A program made the translations under genes and the position numbers. From a virus (Duplodnaviria > Caudoviricetes): a DNA stretch of 64,000 bases. This document shows positions 45,889-56,118 of the stretch, in pieces (position 1 is the stretch's first letter; every line of letters begins with the position of its first letter). The stretch lies in IMG/VR virus record IMGVR_UViG_3300032295_004079, positions 1 through 64,000 of that record; one strand, 5' to 3'. A model generated the notes under the pieces. The model saw only the letters and a program-made list of their open reading frames with translations, searched no databases and was not told where the DNA came from.

Positions 45889-46392
45889 ATGATTTACTCT
45901 CCGACATTTCCAAAACCGTACATTCAAGAAAAGCTTTCCAAGCTTCGCAAACTAAAATACAACCAATTTAGATGGTGGAGAATGTACGACAATCCTGTTT
46001 TACCTTTGCCAAATAAGGCACCATTGATTGATAAAATCTTGAATGGTGATTTTGATTACCCACACTATAAACTCCAGGCTGAACTAGTAGAACACGAGCT
46101 AAACGAATTAGCTCAAAAGTGTGGGGGCAACAATGAAAAATTTGGAGAAAAAAGTGCGCTATTACGTGCTAAAAGAAAAAGATTGCTTGATGACTTTGAA
46201 AAAGAAGAAAATGATAAGCTAGATAGAATATTTAAAGAGTTTATTAAAAACTTTGCTTTAACCAAAGAACAAATTGAGGAAGAAATGCTAAGATTTGTTG
46301 GTAATTTAGGAGAATTTTATTATTATATGGGAGTTAGATACCAAAAAGTACAAAACCCAAACAGACGCGGACGTAAAAAGAAAAATATATGA
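45889..46392 (+). CDS. Hypothetical protein
   Basis: Intact 167-aa ORF with AAGTTATG start, coupled to the next gene. Confidence 0.6.
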   Translation: MIYSPTFPKPYIQEKLSKLRKLKYNQFRWWRMYDNPVLPLPNKAPLIDKILNGDFDYPHYKLQAELVEHELNELAQKCGGNNEKFGEKSALLRAKRKRLLDDFEKEENDKLDRIFKEFIKNFALTKEQIEEEMLRFVGNLGEFYYYMGVRYQKVQNPNRRGRKKKNI

Positions 46393-47177
46393 TCAAAGTT
46401 TCACACGAAGTACCTAGATGTTTATTAAAAGCATCCCTTGAATTTAATGATTACCAGTATTGTCTACCCCATTTGCTAGATCAGGATACAGCTTATAGAA
46501 AGCACTTCTATGATTTTAAAAAATCAGGTGGGTATATTATAATGGACAATTCGTTACATGAACTAGGAGAGGCATATGACCACGAACGTTTAATGTTCTG
46601 GGTAAATGAGCTTGAACCTGATGAATTTATTGTACCTGATGCTTGGATGGATATTGATACTACTCTTAAAAATGCTGAAGAGTGGATTAAACTTAAATAC
46701 CCTTCAAACACTACACCAGTAGCAGTAGTACAAAGTAGAAGTTTTAAAGATGCAGAAGAATGTTATCTTACGTTAAAAAAACTAGGATATAAAAAAATCG
46801 CATTCTCGTATGGAGCGGATTGGTACATGGATAAATTCCACGGTATTCACGTAGATAAAGCAAAAATGCTAGGCCGAATATCAGCTGTAAAGCAAATGTT
46901 CCATAATGGTACTATCCAGAAAAATGATAGAGTACACCTCCTAGGATGTTCTTTACCACAAGAATTTGGATGGTACGAAAATTGTTCGTACATTGAGTCA
47001 ATCGATACTTCAAATCCAATTATGGCTGCTTTAGAAGGTATTAGGTATGATGAGTTTGGTTTGGTAACAAAACCAAAGGCAAACATGAACGATTATTTTA
47101 ACATTGATGTTAAAAATGTAAATTTAAAATTAGTATTATACAACGTAGAAACATTTAAAAAAATTAACGAGTTATGA
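46389..47177 (+). CDS. DpdA/TGT-like transglycosylase (putative 7-deazaguanine insertion)
   Basis: IMDNS, IVPD, VAVVQ, VHLLG and SIDTS motifs of the TGT barrel. Close to queC. Confidence 0.65.
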   Translation: MIKVSHEVPRCLLKASLEFNDYQYCLPHLLDQDTAYRKHFYDFKKSGGYIIMDNSLHELGEAYDHERLMFWVNELEPDEFIVPDAWMDIDTTLKNAEEWIKLKYPSNTTPVAVVQSRSFKDAEECYLTLKKLGYKKIAFSYGADWYMDKFHGIHVDKAKMLGRISAVKQMFHNGTIQKNDRVHLLGCSLPQEFGWYENCSYIESIDTSNPIMAALEGIRYDEFGLVTKPKANMNDYFNIDVKNVNLKLVLYNVETFKKINEL

Positions 47178-47371
47178 TTTCACTATATGATTATTTAGGA
47201 AAAGCCGCAGGTAGAGAACTTGGGGGAAAAGTTTGGCAATATTCTCTTATTAGAGGAGTAGTTTCTGGATTTAGAACAATAGAAAATCCAATGTACAAAG
47301 GAATAGTTGCCTTGTATCCTAAAGAGTTTTTGGATGAGTTTTTTCTAGTGCAAAAAATATTTGATAAATAA
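47174..47371 (+). CDS. Hypothetical protein
   Basis: SLYDYLG.AAG..LG..V...Y.G.V.LYP..FL pattern. Coupled to its neighbours. Confidence 0.6.
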   Translation: MISLYDYLGKAAGRELGGKVWQYSLIRGVVSGFRTIENPMYKGIVALYPKEFLDEFFLVQKIFDK

Positions 47372-47372
47372 T

Positions 47373-47549
47373 ATGGGACTGTACTTAAAAGGTGCTTTAG
47401 ACATGGGAGTTAAATTCCCATCCAACCTAAACGAAGGTATCACTTCTAGTCAAGAAGATTTGAAGGAAATGCTTGCTAAAGTTTGGAACAACCAAAATAA
47501 CTTGACAAAAGAGGATATTAAAACTCTAGAGTATTTATCTAAAAAATAA
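47373..47549 (+). CDS. Small hypothetical protein
   Basis: ATG at 47373 fills the gap before queC. Confidence 0.45.
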   Translation: MGLYLKGALDMGVKFPSNLNEGITSSQEDLKEMLAKVWNNQNNLTKEDIKTLEYLSKK

Positions 47550-47601
47550 CGTTTGCCTATACGTTTAAAATACCTGGTAAAATTAAAAATTATACAAACA
47601 A

Positions 47602-48474
47602 ATGAAAAGCGTAGTAGTATCACTAAGCGGAGGAATGGATTCCTCAACATTATTATTAAGAGCATTATCTGAATATGATAACGTAATTGCAGTATCTTTT
47701 GACTATGGTCAGAAACATAGGGTGGAGCTTGAACGAGCTCAAGAGTTAATAAATTATTTAAATACTTGTGTAAATTGCTCATCATTTGAACCTATCAAAA
47801 TCATTTACCAAATAATTAAACTTGATGGTTTAACTCCACTACTTAACTCTGCTCTTGTAACTGGTGGAGCGGAAGTGCCAGAAGGCCATTACGAGCAAGA
47901 TAACATGAAAGCTACAGTTGTTCCTAACCGTAACAAAATCTTTAGCTCAATTGTACAAGCTATTGCTTTGTCTACTGCTAACCAAAACGAATCTACTTGC
48001 GATATTGCACTAGGTATTCACGCAGGAGACCATGCAATTTATCCAGACTGTAGACAAGAATGGAGAGATGCAGACGATCAAGCATTTAGAGTTGGAAATT
48101 GGGATGTTGGAAGAGTTGGACACTTTACACCTTACCTACACACAGACAAATTTGGTATCTTACAAGATGGAGAACGATTGTGTAAGAAATTAGGTTTGCC
48201 CTTTGACGAGATTTACTCAAGAACAAACACATCTTACAAACCAATTCAACACCTAGTAGAAAAGAAAATTAGTGTATTGGCTAATCTTTCCGAGATGCAA
48301 CAAATTCCAGTATGGTTTAGCGACTATAAAAGTGCAAGTAGCGTGGAGAGGATAGAAGCCTTTATTAAATTAGGTAAACCTGATCCAGTTGCTTATGCAG
48401 ACGAAACCGGACCTGTAAGTTGGGAAGTAGCTAAAGCCCATGTAGAGCAAATATTAGCTCAACATCAAGCTTAA
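47602..48474 (+). CDS. queC: 7-cyano-7-deazaguanine synthase
   Basis: SLSGGMDS, FDYGQKH..E, TVVPNRN, H.GDH..YPDCR and SSVER..AF motifs. Confidence 0.92.
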   Translation: MKSVVVSLSGGMDSSTLLLRALSEYDNVIAVSFDYGQKHRVELERAQELINYLNTCVNCSSFEPIKIIYQIIKLDGLTPLLNSALVTGGAEVPEGHYEQDNMKATVVPNRNKIFSSIVQAIALSTANQNESTCDIALGIHAGDHAIYPDCRQEWRDADDQAFRVGNWDVGRVGHFTPYLHTDKFGILQDGERLCKKLGLPFDEIYSRTNTSYKPIQHLVEKKISVLANLSEMQQIPVWFSDYKSASSVERIEAFIKLGKPDPVAYADETGPVSWEVAKAHVEQILAQHQA

Positions 48475-48486
48475 GCTATTGATGAT

Positions 48487-48557
48487 TGTCCTATGGTGTA
48501 ACGGTAGCACAAGTGGTTTTGGTCCACTTAGACGAGGTTCGAATCCTTGTAGGATAA
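48487..48557 (+). tRNA. tRNA-Gln(TTG)
   Basis: Acceptor TGTCCTA/TAGGATA, anticodon arm AGTGG-tt TTG gt-CCACT, T loop TTCGAAT. Confidence 0.9.
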
Positions 48558-48562
48558 CATAC

Positions 48563-48636
48563 GGGCCTTTAGCTCATTCGGTTAGAGCAGAACACTCATA
48601 ATGTTAAGGTGGCAGGTTCGATTCCTGCAAGGCCCA
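48563..48636 (+). tRNA. tRNA with CAT anticodon, probably Ile2 (lysidine type) rather than Met
   Basis: Acceptor GGGCCTT/AAGGCCC-A and loop CTCATAA. Body resembles bacterial Ile2 tRNAs. Confidence 0.85.
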
Positions 48637-48665
48637 CAAAAAATAAATTTATAAACTAAAAAAAT

Positions 48666-48890
48666 ATGGAAATAGTATATTTTACCTTAGGTGCCGCTAC
48701 AGTTTTATTAGTAATTGGAGTTGCAATTATGATTAGGATAGGTATTCTAGTAAGAACATTACAAGAAGATCTAAGAGATCATGAAAGAGGAACTCATGAT
48801 GTGGCAGTTGATTTACATCGTAGAATTGATAATGAATTAAGAGATTTACAATCTCAATTAGATTCAAGATTGAGTAAACTTGAAGATTAA
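48666..48890 (+). CDS. Small membrane-anchored coiled-coil protein
   Basis: N-terminal TM helix, then DSRL..L coiled coil. Confidence 0.6.
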   Translation: MEIVYFTLGAATVLLVIGVAIMIRIGILVRTLQEDLRDHERGTHDVAVDLHRRIDNELRDLQSQLDSRLSKLED

Positions 48891-48912
48891 AATAGTTCTT
48901 TGATATGTATAT

Positions 48913-49067
48913 TGTAGAGTGTTGAAATTGGCAGACATGCCCACCTGTCTCGTGGGCGGGGGTAACGAAATAAAGTAAGGATATTGGGGTAGACCACCGG
49001 CTTGCAAGCGCTATTTGTCCTTTACCTAATTGCCCCGTGGATGGTTCGAATCCTCCCTCTACAGCCA
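48913..49067 (+). ncRNA. 155-nt tRNA-like RNA with GTC (Asp) anticodon and a giant branched variable arm
   Basis: Acceptor TGTAGAG/CTCTACA-G-CCA, Leu-type D loop, CCCAC-CTGTCTC-GTGGG anticodon arm, about 80-nt extra arm, GGTTCGAATCC T arm. Confidence 0.75.
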
Positions 49068-49071
49068 TTAT

Positions 49072-49145
49072 TCCTCCTTAGCTCAGCTGGTTAGAGCACA
49101 TGACTGTTAATCATGGGGTCCTTGGTTCGAGCCCAAGAGGAGGAG
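49072..49145 (+). tRNA. tRNA-Asn(GTT)
   Basis: Acceptor TCCTCCT/AGGAGGA-G, anticodon arm CATGA-ct GTT aa-TCATG. Confidence 0.95.
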
Positions 49146-49150
49146 CACCA

Positions 49151-49222
49151 GCTCCTAAAGCATTGCTGGCGATGCGCATGACTTGTAATCATGATAACTT
49201 GGTTCGATTCCGAGTGGGAGCT
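49151..49222 (+). tRNA. tRNA-Thr(TGT)
   Basis: Acceptor GCTCCTA/TGGGAGC, anticodon arm CATGA-ct TGT aa-TCATG. Confidence 0.9.
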
Positions 49223-49433
49223 CAACAGTACCTCGATACTTCTCATAAGAACAGTTCTGAGGTCTTATTGTGATATAAGTGAATAGCCCAAGGCATAAGC
49301 TAGAATCACACCCCTAACCACTATTCAAATGACGATTTGATTATGTTAGGGTTTTAACAACACCCTATGACGAAGGAACTCAATTGAGAACTAGAAGTAA
49401 GGGCACTATGCACATAGGGTGTTTTTTATATTT

Positions 49434-49505
49434 GCTCGGTTCGTCTAGGGGTTAGGACGTATCCCTTTCACGGATAAAACACGGGTTCGATTCCCGTATC
49501 GAGTA
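49434..49505 (+). tRNA. tRNA-Glu(TTC)
   Basis: Acceptor GCTCGGT/ATCGAGT, anticodon arm TATCC-ct TTC ac-GGATA. Confidence 0.9.
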
Positions 49506-49655
49506 CAAGATTGTAACGATTCGAAAGAATGACGGAACGGACGCTATGAATGAAATGGTAATCTTTGAAACTGTAGAAAGGAGTATAAGAGAAACAAACC
49601 GTACAGACGTTACAATCTCCCTCTTTAAAGGAGTATAGAAAGTTATTTGAAATAT

Positions 49656-50032
49656 GGGGTTGAAAGGTATAGATTGGCAATGTAAATGAAGTAGATGATG
49701 CAAGCCGGGTTAGATGGAAATCCGTAAATACCTATCGAACAATAAGAGGCGAAGAGAAATCTTCATTCACCTTCGAAGATGCTTTGGCATTCGTAGGTGC
49801 TGATTACGCTGTAGCAGCCTAATCTTTCCCGCACACATCGTGGGGTGTTAAAAAGAATGTGTACCAAGGTGGAAAAGTGATTGAACCCGAAATCGAATCA
49901 CCCATTGGTTGTCAGGTTTACGATGGTGAAGAACAAACCGACTATTTTGTTTATTAAGAAAAATAAACTAAGCTTGTGAATGAGTCCTTTAGTTAGTTGA
50001 GCAAGACGGCGGTTCGATTCCGCCCAACTCCA
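49656..50032 (+). ncRNA. ssrA: tmRNA
   Basis: Acceptor GGGGTTG/CAACTCC-A with G3.U70, T arm GGCGG-TTCGATT-CCGCC. Tag ORF 49748-49822 reads GEEKSSFTFEDALAFVGADYAVAA*. Confidence 0.92.
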
Positions 50033-50050
50033 CTTTTATTATTAAAAATT

Positions 50051-50227
50051 ATGGCACTATTTAAAGATTTAAAAGAATTACAAGAAGAATTGCAATACTG
50101 GAAAGAATACGAGCCTGTAAACAATATGGGAAAATGGTATGTAAGTGTCAGAATTGATAAAATAAAAAGAAAAATTAAAGCAGTTGAAGAAGAGTTAAAG
50201 AAAAGAAAAAATAGATTGGCTACTTAA
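50051..50227 (+). CDS. Small basic hypothetical protein
   Basis: ATG at 50051. The ORF-track start lies inside the tmRNA. Confidence 0.55.
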   Translation: MALFKDLKELQEELQYWKEYEPVNNMGKWYVSVRIDKIKRKIKAVEEELKKRKNRLAT

Positions 50228-50246
50228 ATCTCATTTCGTACCTTTA
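50216..50246 (+). promoter_or_regulatory. Promoter TTG-N20-TACCTTTA upstream of tRNA-Leu
   Basis: Exact 20-nt spacer. Confidence 0.65.
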
Positions 50247-50259
50247 TATTATATTAAAT

Positions 50260-50343
50260 GCCGGGATGGTGGAATAGGTAGACACGCAAGACTTAAAATC
50301 TTGTTCGCCAACGCGAGTGCGGGTTCGATTCCCGCTCCTGGTA
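50260..50343 (+). tRNA. tRNA-Leu(TAA)
   Basis: Acceptor GCCGGGA/TCCTGGT-A, anticodon arm CAAGA-ct TAA aa-TCTTG, class II variable arm. Confidence 0.95.
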
Positions 50344-50393
50344 CTATTAATAAACATATTTATATTTATAACAAACAAAAACAAACAAACAAA

Positions 50394-54484: not shown

Positions 54485-55339
54485 ATGAACAAATTAGGTA
54501 GAATTGAAGACTACAATAAGGTATTACCTATTGTAGAACTATATACAGCGGTTCAATCCGAAGGAAGTAGAGCAGGTTATCCAACTATTATTATCCGAAC
54601 CACAGGTTGTACTCACAGATGTTTCTTTGGAGAAGGAGGATGGTGCGACAGCTGGTATACAAGTATCCATCCAGAAAAAGGTACATTTACCTTTAATGAC
54701 ATCATCAAAATGTATGACGCTAATCCCCACATTTCAGAAATGATGTTAACAGGCGGTGCTCCAACTATGCACCCTGCTTTAGTAAACGAACTAACACATT
54801 TCGCAAATGAAAGAAACATATTCATCACCATTGAAACTGAGGGATCGCATTTTCTCCCTACCGATTATCCTATTAATCTCGTTAGTATTTCTCCTAAGTT
54901 TGCTAATAGTGTCCCCGTTCTTGGGGCTGTTACGCCGCAAGGAAAAGTAGCAGATCAAAAGATGATCGATCAACACAACAAACTTAGATTGAATTATGCT
55001 TCAATCGCTAGAATGATTGCATACCATGATAGCTACCATCTAAAACCAGTTATTGACAAGAATTTAGCTATTATTCCCGAATACGAGGAATTTTTAGATG
55101 CACTAGCTGTAGAACTACAGAGCATAAGAGATGTACAAGATGCTTTCTTCTATACAGTATCTGATGTAGATGACATTCGAGACATGTTAAAGTTTAATAC
55201 CTGGATGATGCCTGCAGGAGATGATAGACCTGCACTATTTGAATCTTATCCTGTTGTAATGAACTACTGTAGAGATAATGGCTACAAGTTTACAGGTAGA
55301 GAACATATTATGGCTTTTGGTACTGAAAGATGTGTTTAA
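54485..55339 (+). CDS. queE: 7-carboxy-7-deazaguanine synthase (radical SAM)
   Basis: E.Y..VQ.EG...G.P.I.IRT.GC...C.......CDS, LTGG.P, IETEG, SISPK and R.H motifs. Confidence 0.9.
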   Translation: MNKLGRIEDYNKVLPIVELYTAVQSEGSRAGYPTIIIRTTGCTHRCFFGEGGWCDSWYTSIHPEKGTFTFNDIIKMYDANPHISEMMLTGGAPTMHPALVNELTHFANERNIFITIETEGSHFLPTDYPINLVSISPKFANSVPVLGAVTPQGKVADQKMIDQHNKLRLNYASIARMIAYHDSYHLKPVIDKNLAIIPEYEEFLDALAVELQSIRDVQDAFFYTVSDVDDIRDMLKFNTWMMPAGDDRPALFESYPVVMNYCRDNGYKFTGREHIMAFGTERCV

Positions 55340-55340
55340 T

Positions 55341-55371
55341 TTGGGATCCCAAATCAGGATTCGTATATTTA
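55341..55371 (+). promoter_or_regulatory. Promoter TTG-N20-TATATTTA upstream of folE
   Basis: Exact 20-nt spacer. TTG lies in the palindrome ATTTGGGATCCCAAAT. Confidence 0.65.
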
Positions 55372-55389
55372 CAAAAAATAAGATAGTTA

Positions 55390-56118
55390 ATGGAAAATAA
55401 TAGAAAGAAAAAACACACAAATTTAGAGGTAGTACCCGTAGGGTTTGCAAATGGTATTTCAACTCAATTAGCTGCTAAACGTGCTTTGTTTGGAGAAGCA
55501 ACTGAGCTAACTGAAACAGAAAAAAATGATATCATCCAAAAAGCTACTAAAGCATATGGAGAATTTTTAACTGCACTAGGTTGTGATTGGGAAAACGATC
55601 CCAATTCAGCTGATACTCCTAAACGAGTAGCTAAAGCATATGTTAATGATTTGTGGAAAGGTAGATTTTCTCCAATGTCTGAAATTACATCTTTCCCAAG
55701 TGATGGATACGATGGAATTGTAATTGAAAGAAATATTCCACTTACTTCAATGTGTTCACACCACCACCAAACAATTGGAGGAGTAGTTCATATTGGTTAC
55801 GTGGTAGGTTTGGAAGGTAGAGTGATTGGTCTTTCCAAACTAAACCGAATTGTAGAACACTTTGGTCGTAGAGGGGCAATTCAAGAACAACTTACCTCTG
55901 CAATTCACCAAGCAGTAGATAAAATTACTGAAAATAATAAAGGTGTAATTGTTACAGTTGTAGGAACACACAATTGTGTTTCATGTCGAGGTGTTAAACA
56001 TCAAGGTGCATCTATGGTGACAACAAAAGCTTCTGGCGTATTTATGGACAATAGCAACCAAGCACGCAAAGAATTTTTTGACAGCATCAAAATCAATAAT
56101 GGAAACCACCCGGTATAA
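55390..56118 (+). CDS. folE: GTP cyclohydrolase I
   Basis: TPKRVAK, SMCSHH, GLSKL.R, IQE.LT and H.C..CRGV motifs. Confidence 0.95.
   Translation: MENNRKKKHTNLEVVPVGFANGISTQLAAKRALFGEATELTETEKNDIIQKATKAYGEFLTALGCDWENDPNSADTPKRVAKAYVNDLWKGRFSPMSEITSFPSDGYDGIVIERNIPLTSMCSHHHQTIGGVVHIGYVVGLEGRVIGLSKLNRIVEHFGRRGAIQEQLTSAIHQAVDKITENNKGVIVTVVGTHNCVSCRGVKHQGASMVTTKASGVFMDNSNQARKEFFDSIKINNGNHPV

Follow-up and report, generated by a model that had tools for sequence, protein, structure and literature searches.

What does an RNA do that is shaped like a tRNA, carries an Asp anticodon on a body with a Leu-type D arm, and has a branched arm of 79 nt in its variable region? The question is raised by a tRNA-like RNA element, here called X, at positions 48913-49064 of the window, by which we mean the whole 64,000-nt stretch analyzed (positions 1 to 64,000 of IMG/VR viral record IMGVR_UViG_3300032295_004079, a record of 113 kb that is ~69% complete). 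The GC content of the window is ~33%, and the phage, judged by a family-B DNA polymerase only 33% identical to that of any isolate, is an uncultured, distantly T4-like one. X lies in an RNA island (48487-50344) in the order tRNA-Gln, tRNA-Met, a 74-aa open reading frame (ORF), X, tRNA-Asn, tRNA-Thr, tRNA-Glu, transfer-messenger RNA (tmRNA) and tRNA-Leu. An initial annotation, made from the window alone, took X for a structured tRNA mimic and listed as possible roles a decoy for anticodon nucleases, a substrate of tRNA-guanine transglycosylase (TGT) and an aminoacyl donor.

Here we ask whether X is a gene, where else it is found and what it may do. We found that X is almost certainly a real, functional RNA gene. 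On the evidence of its homologs, it is a phage-borne member of a large RNA family of the Bacteroidota, tRNA-shaped and so far uncatalogued. The conserved positions of the family are discussed below in terms of a carrier on which aspartate would be converted to asparagine, and this mechanism is weighed against several others.

A conserved and covarying RNA family

Homologs were collected with two pattern scans of viral contigs, one with the anticodon fixed (55 loci) and one with the anticodon left free (35 new loci, 28 members), and with a scan of species-representative bacterial genomes (at least 120 loci). Relatives of the QueC-like gene that neighbors X also led to four syntenic contigs carrying X, in which compensatory substitutions are found in the anticodon stem and in both arm helices. 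The family set comprises 189 unique copies, from ~80 viral contigs and >120 Bacteroidota genomes.

A hand-made structure was tested on 81 diverse copies (alignment A3). Compensatory changes occur in 29 of the 37 pairs, and 96.8% of the cells show standard pairing, compared with 79% in shuffled and 46-60% in slid controls; the observed values of pairing and covariation were reached by none of 500 shuffles. The covariance model R1, built from A3, matched X, itself one of the 81 sequences, with 142.1 bits (E = 5.7e-40, model positions 1-146), and its sole other match in the window was the tRNA-Leu, with 44.5 bits. Relatives of X at 76-87% identity scored 119-160 bits. Covariation among homologs, which the initial annotation had named as a check, thus bears out its view of X as a conserved and structured RNA.

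The reality of the structure rests on these homologs, because the single-sequence fold energy of X is no better than that of shuffled sequences (z = +0.34). ARAGORN made no call for X in the window and no Rfam family overlapped it there, even at E ≤ 10, so that no match to a described family emerged; at the Pedobacter locus the only Rfam overlap was a chance-level match to tRNA-Sec (15 bits), and no description of the family was found in the literature. A mimic of the tmRNA or YrlA type was considered and rejected: neither RF00023, RF04321, RF02553 nor any other Rfam family matched over X, and its anticodon arm is intact.

The pair U1:A72 is present in 80/81 copies and G2:C71 in 81/81, and the discriminator is G73 in all 194 copies collected. 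All 147 long-form copies have the anticodon loop NNGUCUC, and a few viral copies have C33; U35, C36 and C38 do not change in any copy, not even in those that differ at positions 33 and 34. A Leu-type D arm is also conserved across the family. The GUC anticodon and G73, singled out at the start as Asp identity elements, proved to be, together with C38 and G2:C71, the most conserved positions of the family. In the T stem, G49:C65 is found in 175/187 copies and A51:U63 in 147/187; a T-stem bulge is present in only 33 of the 187 parsed copies.

The variable arm measures 45-95 nt across the family and is structured. Its plan consists of a helix P1 of 4 bp, a 5' bulge of 4-5 nt, a helix P1b of 3 bp, an asymmetric internal loop (5'-AUAAA / 5'-CUAA) in which three A residues never vary, a helix P2 of 6-9 bp, and a variable fourth element. 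Long forms carry the hairpin UGG-N(0-2)U(U/A)GA-CCA (P3) with an invariant GACCAC, a motif present in 147 of the 189 unique copies; covariation neither supports nor refutes this hairpin, because its GACCAC pairs (G:C, G:C) never vary. X of the window has U1:A72, G2:C71, G73, the D loop AAAUUGGCAGA and the NNGUCUC loop, and its arm shows the full layout of P1, 5' bulge, P1b, AUAAA/CUAA loop, P2 and GACCAC hairpin. Since the complete tRNA core is kept, X should be excised from the phage tRNA array like its neighbors.

Architecture of X in the window

The features of X are collected in Table 1. The parts of the cloverleaf were found as first described (7-bp acceptor stem, G73, Leu-type D loop, GUC, U37 and bulged T stem), with U8 and G9 following the acceptor stem on direct reading, and the branched arm, estimated at ~80 nt, is confirmed as one of 79 nt within a full cloverleaf. 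Both small hairpins of the arm, UGG-GGUAGA-CCA and GCU-UGCA-AGC, are also present. The outer arm, drawn initially as a continuous GGGGTAA/TTGCCCC stem, had to be revised: covariation retains the helices GGGG/CCCC and CGA/UUG and places a 4-nt bulge between them. The inner arm stem reads GUAAGGA(UA)/(U)GUCCUUUAC.

The encoded CCA of X, which the initial annotation had treated as a distinguishing feature, has another explanation. The tRNA-Asn at 49072-49146 sits between X and tRNA-Thr only in the phage of the window, and in the copies that are 99% and 97% identical to X (contigs L003 and L006) the sequence G-CACCA-tRNAThr follows X directly. The tRNA-Asn was inserted exactly at the 3' junction of X, giving GCCA, and by this comparison of junctions the CCA is a by-product of the insertion and not a feature of X.

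Table 1. Features of X in the window, and short forms of the family with G33 loops
Feature	Position	Strand	Remarks
Whole X, position 1 to discriminator G73	48913..49064	+	152 nt; model R1 142.1 bits; homologs aligned end to end
Acceptor stem, 5' strand UGUAGAG	48913..48919	+	pairs with 49057-49063; U1:A72, G2:C71; 6/7 pairs covary
D arm: 3-bp stem and Leu-type loop AAAUUGGCAGA	48922..48938	+	pairs 10:26 and 11:25 covary
Anticodon arm: 5-bp stem, loop CUGUCUC (48945-48951)	48940..48956	+	stem covaries
Anticodon GUC	48947-48949	+	U37 at 48950
Variable arm, branched	48958..49036	+	79 nt; P1, P1b and P2 all covary
P1, GGGG/CCCC	48958-48961 with 49033-49036	+	covaries
Arm bulge, 4 nt	48962-48965	+	
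P1b, CGA/UUG	48966-48968 with 49030-49032	+	covaries
Arm internal loop	48969-48974 and 49026-49029	+	A60, A116 and A117 invariant
P2	48975-48983 with 49016-49025	+	covaries
P3 hairpin UGG-GGUAGA-CCA	48985..48996	+	invariant GACCAC at 48992-48997
P4, perfect palindrome GCUUGCAAGC (DNA GCTTGCAAGC), arm tip	49000..49009	+	hairpin GCU-UGCA-AGC or possible kissing site
T arm GGA(U)GG / UUCGAAU / CCUCC	49039..49056	+	G49:C65, G50:C64, A51:U63; 4/5 pairs covary
T-stem bulged U	49042	+	
Acceptor stem, 3' strand CUCUACA, and G73	49057..49064	+	G at 49064
CCA	49065..49067	+	not a conserved part of the gene
Short forms with G33 loops	L203:4017-4134, L231:6709-6824, L217:836-949, L250:5161-5275, L244:5461-5579		

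Class II tRNAs, and especially tRNA-Leu (RF00005), share with X the 7/5 acceptor/T arrangement, the 3-bp D stem and the loop AAAUUGGNAGA, and their arm likewise emerges at positions 44-48. X differs from tRNA-Leu by its Asp-type anticodon loop and by a G73 where tRNA-Leu has A73, and from class II tRNAs in an arm that is 3-6 times longer, contains a bulge and a conserved internal loop, and branches at its tip; furthermore, X is detected neither by RF00005 nor by ARAGORN. The stable RNAs C and D of phage T4 (species 1 and 2) are likewise unexplained RNAs within a T4-type tRNA array. The first of them, rnaC, resembles X in its T arm and in a closing stem of acceptor type, but is devoid of D and anticodon arms. 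Homology to rnaC and rnaD was rejected; rnaC has no sequence similarity to X, which is a full cloverleaf with cellular homologs.

Phage copies

The viral copies number ~65 distinct sequences of 110-161 nt on contigs of 4 kb to 326 kb. Of the four syntenic contigs, two (L004 and L083) carry short forms of 115-117 nt, whose tip is a simple hairpin and not branched. X is the sole tRNA-like gene in ~20 phage loci; in phage arrays it is often directly preceded by tRNA-Ser, and a canonical tRNA-Asp (with A37) stands alongside it in 6 phage loci. The phage isolate database held no close relative of X, only generic tRNA parts being matched, and an exact 25-mer spanning T arm and acceptor stem had zero matches in the viral contigs. 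No protein neighbor is conserved across phage clades (~50 viral loci); ThyX and Tad2-like neighbors are confined to one phage subclade.

At the P4 site, 45 of the 51 viral long forms have a perfect palindrome that is rich in GC and 6 nt or longer (mean of 19 in shuffled controls), for example GCCGGCCGGC, GCGCGC or GTGCAC, and most bacterial copies have none there. Because these palindromes resemble the HIV-1 dimerization loop, phage copies may, by analogy, dimerize through them.

None of five phage records searched encodes an AspRS-class enzyme, and the phage of the window likewise has none. A 288-kb X-bearing jumbo phage (the source of copy L095) encodes a 504-aa protein of the Asn-synthase family (PP-loop) at G004:C1:204352-205047; no such gene was found in the other four phage records searched for it.

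Bacterial copies and their genomic company

Every organism named among the matches listed belongs to the Bacteroidota. Four orders are represented (Sphingobacteriales, Cytophagales, Saprospirales and Chitinophagales), and the matches listed include Pedobacter isolates, Spirosoma, Larkinella, Aquirufa, Chitinophaga skermanii, Saprospiraceae, Cyclobacteriaceae and Cytophagaceae. The bacterial copies closest to X, again among the matches listed, come from metagenome-assembled genomes (MAGs) of Cyclobacteriaceae and are ~78% identical. On a tree of the 189 unique copies we counted only 6 changes between viral and bacterial labels, versus ~50 with shuffled labels; transfers between viruses and bacteria were therefore few, and persistence in phage lineages has been long. 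By its distribution, then, this is a cellular RNA family that is carried also by phages. Two MAG contigs (L179 and L181) hold copies identical to viral ones (L174/L161, L164), and are probably phage contigs binned into MAGs, or prophages.

In many bacteria a short copy of 107-119 nt lies 75-100 nt upstream of a long copy on the same strand, an arrangement seen in dozens of Pedobacter, Cyclobacteriaceae and Ohtaekwangia loci. The tandem of Pedobacter zeae (short copy L195:5197-5310, long copy L195:5386-5530) has a TAnnTTTG-type box (TACATTTG) upstream and a hairpin with a T run downstream, and is divergent from an AsnC-like gene. Some short forms have CGAUCUC or CGUUCUC loops (G33 with A34 or U34), and since short forms vary at 33 and 34 the truly invariant part of the loop is U35-C36-(U37)-C38. 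Departures at positions 33, 34 or 37 are found in 8 of the 42 copies that lack GACCAC and in none of the 147 that have it, an association which is a hint only, as it reflects roughly four independent events.

In 98 of 127 bacterial loci a 157-aa regulator of the Lrp/AsnC family is encoded divergently, ~180 nt upstream of X. The other bacterial neighbors are lineage-specific housekeeping genes (SufB, SufC, FadD, FeoB, PyrH, RRF). No divergent AsnC-type regulator stands beside X of the window or beside other phage copies, which lie in tRNA arrays or alone. In a phylum sample of 151 genomes, X was present in 16; the regulator was encoded in 16/16 of these, adjacent to X in 10, and in 17/135 X-negative genomes. 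GatB was found in 16/16 X-positive genomes (126/151 overall) and GlnRS in 14/16 (67/151 overall). AsnRS was present in 5/5 X-positive genomes tested, and a canonical tRNA-Asp with A37 in 5/5 host genomes tested.

Surroundings of X in the window

The 74-aa ORF between tRNA-Met and X (48666-48890) has a hydrophobic N-terminal stretch and matched no PHROG family. Relatives of its protein occur on L082 (97%) and L083 (68%); the ORF is not present on L003 and L004, where X starts ~25 nt and ~10 nt, respectively, after tRNA-Met. The tmRNA (49656-50033) encodes a 24-residue tag ending in YAVAA, and the same or a similar tag is found on L003, L129 and L112; this tag would fit a Bacteroidota host. Two ORF-free spacers lie within the tRNA array, at 49224-49433 (~200 nt) and 49507-49655 (~150 nt), and neither matched an Rfam family at a meaningful score. 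The segments 46389-48474 and 54485-56118, which flank the island, hold a TGT/DpdA-like ORF, assigned to a PHROG of unknown function, and QueC-like, QueE-like and GTP cyclohydrolase genes. Together, these genes point to a 7-deazaguanine modification of the phage DNA.

A proposed off-ribosome carrier for asparagine

Among the roles first listed for X, that of an aminoacyl donor or carrier accords best with the evidence, given the AsnC-type neighbor, U1:A72, the Asn-type T stem and the presence of GatB in all sampled host genomes; the TGT substrate and, as primary role, the anticodon-nuclease decoy found no support. The whole mechanism that we favor, tentatively and with somewhat less than even confidence, is a non-decoding carrier on which Asp becomes Asn. 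CCA would be added to X, and the host AspRS would then load it with aspartate through U35, C36, C38, G73 and G2:C71. Asp-X would stay off the ribosome by virtue of an Asn-type T stem with weak EF-Tu binding, of U37 and of the bulky arm. GatCAB, reading U1:A72 and indifferent to position 36, would amidate Asp to Asn, and the labile ester would free asparagine, or Asn would pass to an acceptor. In cells, X would thus be an RNA carrier for an asparagine supply controlled by AsnC. The regulator-free copy of an AT-rich phage would escape this control and sustain the supply of asparagine during infection, from which a phage of 33% GC would profit if its proteins were rich in Asn, as low GC tends to cause.

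Several observations are consistent with this mechanism. The five charging elements named above make up what we take to be the identity set of E. coli AspRS apart from G10. Since position 36 is C, as in tRNA-Asp, even a discriminating AspRS could charge X. It has been reported that U1-A72 is the bacterial amidation determinant, and that amidation of a tRNA-Asn with C36 is only ~2-fold worse (PMC1635274). The combination of G49:C65 with A51:U63 stops Asp-tRNA-Asn from binding EF-Tu, and the half-life of Asn-tRNA was ~7 min in the assay used (PMC1904265); as free Asn-tRNA is labile, the release of Asn may need no dedicated enzyme. When differences in EF-Tu binding free energy (ddG) were summed over the T stem from published increments (PMC3239215), the family median was +0.7 kcal/mol and X gave +0.7, compared with -1.1 to -0.5 for canonical tRNA-Asp of the same genomes. 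On these sums, the predicted binding of X to EF-Tu is weaker by 1.2-3.2 kcal/mol than that of the genome's own canonical tRNA-Asp. Furthermore, U37 and the variable position 33 argue against decoding by X, which is distinct from the ordinary tRNA-Asp that coexists with it in 6 phage loci and 5/5 hosts. Finally, GatCAB is dispensable for translation in X-positive genomes, because both AsnRS (5/5) and GlnRS (14/16) are present.

The closest known counterpart is the bacterial tRNA-Asn of the indirect pathway, in which AspRS and GatCAB act together (transamidosome). X shares with it U1:A72, G49:C65, A51:U63, G73 and a GUN-type anticodon loop with U35 and C38, and the host genomes of X encode GatB. 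X differs from it in C36 (Asp type), U37, the Leu-type D arm and the 79-nt structured arm. All long forms have the anticodon GUC and not the GUU that decodes AAY, and the product on X, unlike that on tRNA-Asn, would not be usable for Asn codons.

Other observations weigh against an asparagine carrier. The best match of the regulator is the E. coli-type AsnC, but its 177 bits are below the cut-off of 227 bits, which makes it AsnC-like only. An asparagine synthetase of the AsnB type is encoded by 3-4 of 5 X-positive genomes (none was found in Spirosoma luteum), which can thus do without X for Asn synthesis; AsnA is absent from X-positive genomes, which is uninformative because it is rare phylum-wide (4/151). 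GatB and GlnRS are enriched among X-positive genomes, but they also occur together in ~28 X-negative genomes, and with GatB in 126/151 genomes and AsnA rare everywhere the enzyme profiles are permissive, not specific. The G10 element of E. coli AspRS is not conserved in the family and is absent in X of the window, which does have the markers G34, U35, C36, C38, G73 and G2:C71. The carrier route is dearer in ATP than AsnB, and we know of no deacylase or acceptor for it. Bacterial amidotransferase is sensitive to the size of the D loop (PMC1635274), and X has a large, Leu-type one, which could, together with the arm, hinder both GatCAB and AspRS. Given the Asn-type T stem, Asn-X could, by the same kind of binding estimate, be accepted by EF-Tu, in which case something else must prevent misreading of Asp codons.

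In an improbable extension of the carrier mechanism, the anticodon would be masked in cis. The invariant U(A/U)GAC loop of the arm would act as a built-in Asp codon that pairs with the G34-U35-C36(-U37) of the same molecule and so keeps the ribosome from reaching the anticodon, possibly once AspRS has done its reading, and phage copies would pair with each other through loops like that of HIV-1 (GCGCGC, GUGCAC, GCUUGCAAGC); X would then be a self-closing, dimerizing, off-ribosome carrier that makes asparagine. The restriction of changes at 33, 34 and 37 to copies without GACCAC and the palindromes of the viral long forms give this idea slight support. It conflicts with the reading of the same bases by AspRS, and the invariance of GACCAC leaves no covariation to judge it by.

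Alternative explanations

The strongest alternative to the asparagine carrier, though we consider it unlikely, is that X works uncharged, as a tRNA-shaped structural or regulatory RNA with a protein bound to its arm and UCUC loop. The partner could be AspRS or GatCAB, a factor of the stress or stringent response, or a toxin that targets tRNAs; X would then serve as sensor, sponge or decoy, and phages would carry it so as to keep or subvert that control. The most conserved features outside the tRNA core (the AUAAA/CUAA loop and GACCAC), like the UCUC of the anticodon loop, are single-stranded motifs, and the association of GACCAC with positions 33, 34 and 37 suggests that two sites cooperate. 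The palindromic loops of phage long forms would suit dimerizing, and X often stands in phage loci as the only tRNA-like gene. However, an uncharged RNA would need neither the strict G73 nor the perfect 7-bp acceptor stem nor the AspRS marker set, and the Asn-type tuning of the T stem is sensible only in an aminoacylated RNA. A decoy for anticodon nucleases, or for any other defense, is disfavored as the primary role by the chromosomal site of the gene, which in >120 bacterial genomes lies beside a metabolic regulator.

Rather unlikely, too, is a role of X as donor of aspartate or another amino acid to a non-ribosomal transferase acting on the cell envelope, a metabolite or phage DNA. Precedents are the staphylococcal non-proteinogenic tRNA-Gly and the Gly-tRNA used by Mom of phage Mu. 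The AspRS markers, and the weak EF-Tu binding predicted for X, suit such a donor equally well, DNA-modification genes flank the island in the window, and a phage enzyme with tRNA-dependent DNA hypermodification offers a further precedent (PMC13219725). The staphylococcal tRNA-Gly, which serves the cell wall, is likewise an extra gene beside the normal isoacceptor, its role is off the ribosome, as we presume for X, and its T-stem pairs weaken EF-Tu binding (PMC1904265), as is predicted for X. That tRNA has an ordinary size and a known transferase partner, whereas the arm of X is giant, and its neighbors include no conserved transferase gene in 127 bacterial or ~50 viral loci. Moreover, a donor role leaves the conservation of U1:A72 and the AsnC-type regulator unexplained, and 7-deazaguanine genes do not accompany X.

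The complete cloverleaf with GUC, G73 and C38, and the lack of a canonical tRNA-Asp in the tRNA array of the window's clade, could be taken to mean that X is a working elongator tRNA-Asp which tolerates a large insertion in the variable region and supplies the phage with a tRNA for GAY codons. This is improbable. Elongator tRNA-Asp has a purine at position 37 and a variable loop of 4-5 nt, in contrast to the nearly invariant U37 and the 79-nt arm of X, and some members have C33 or G33. It also binds EF-Tu tightly through G49:U65 and G51:C63, where X has G49:C65 and A51:U63, and the predicted loss of binding given above applies. Furthermore, a canonical tRNA-Asp coexists with X in hosts and in several phages, and the structure of the arm is under purifying selection and not just tolerated.

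Charging by SerRS (or LeuRS) through the long arm and G73, as in allo-tRNAs, with Ser-X serving for recoding or as a carrier, is quite improbable. The long arm, G73 and the invariant G2:C71 of X correspond to what we assume to be the SerRS elements of E. coli, tRNA-Ser often directly precedes X in phage arrays, and the D arm is Leu-like. For G73 and the long arm, this role in SerRS recognition has been described (PMC7609411). The allo-tRNAs and other irregular long-arm tRNAs of Mukai et al. (PMC5389517) share with X the long arm, G73, an anticodon mismatched to a class II body, and an origin in metagenomes, bacteria and phages. They differ in an 8/4 or 9/3 acceptor/T arrangement and in varied decoding anticodons, whereas X has a 7/5 arrangement, one fixed loop and a structured arm that is far larger. 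Neither SerRS nor LeuRS reads the anticodon, which would leave the invariant UCUC loop unexplained; the A73 required by LeuRS is never present; and a branched arm with bulge and internal loop is unlike the simple arm of tRNA-Ser. Only 1 of 50 X-bearing viral records has a phage SerRS gene, and no X lies within the 3.3-kb locus around it.

We regard it as very unlikely that X is a substrate or trap for TGT or a phage DpdA-like enzyme, tied to the 7-deazaguanine genes. X of the window does have the U33-G34-U35 motif, and QueC-like, QueE-like, GTP cyclohydrolase and TGT-like genes flank the island. But complete X-bearing phage genomes (130, 245 and 326 kb) have no QueC, which was found in only 2/9 X-bearing large phage records, plus one weak match below the cut-off; members with C33, or with G33 and A34/U34, lack the TGT motif, and the bacterial copies have no que-gene neighborhood. 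That X is a decayed tRNA, or a tRNA gene broken by an insertion, as the lack of ARAGORN and Rfam calls and the unremarkable fold energy might suggest, is refuted by covariation, with compensatory substitutions in every helix, the arm included, among 189 unique copies, and its probability is negligible.

Significance

These results show that an RNA gene which is widespread, in four orders of Bacteroidota as well as in many large phages of aquatic origin, escapes standard annotation. Whatever its mechanism, X is a natural case of a tRNA core to which a large functional domain has been added, and the family is present in culturable hosts (Pedobacter, Spirosoma and Chitinophaga). If X is the carrier on which Asp becomes Asn, it would be the first RNA scaffold that is dedicated to amino-acid biosynthesis and takes no part in decoding. 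The retention of GatCAB in Bacteroidetes has been noted as a puzzle (PMC4206432), and such a carrier would explain why GatCAB is kept in these bacteria despite AsnRS and GlnRS. Such a carrier would, moreover, be the first case in which the "auxiliary metabolic gene" of a phage encodes an RNA.

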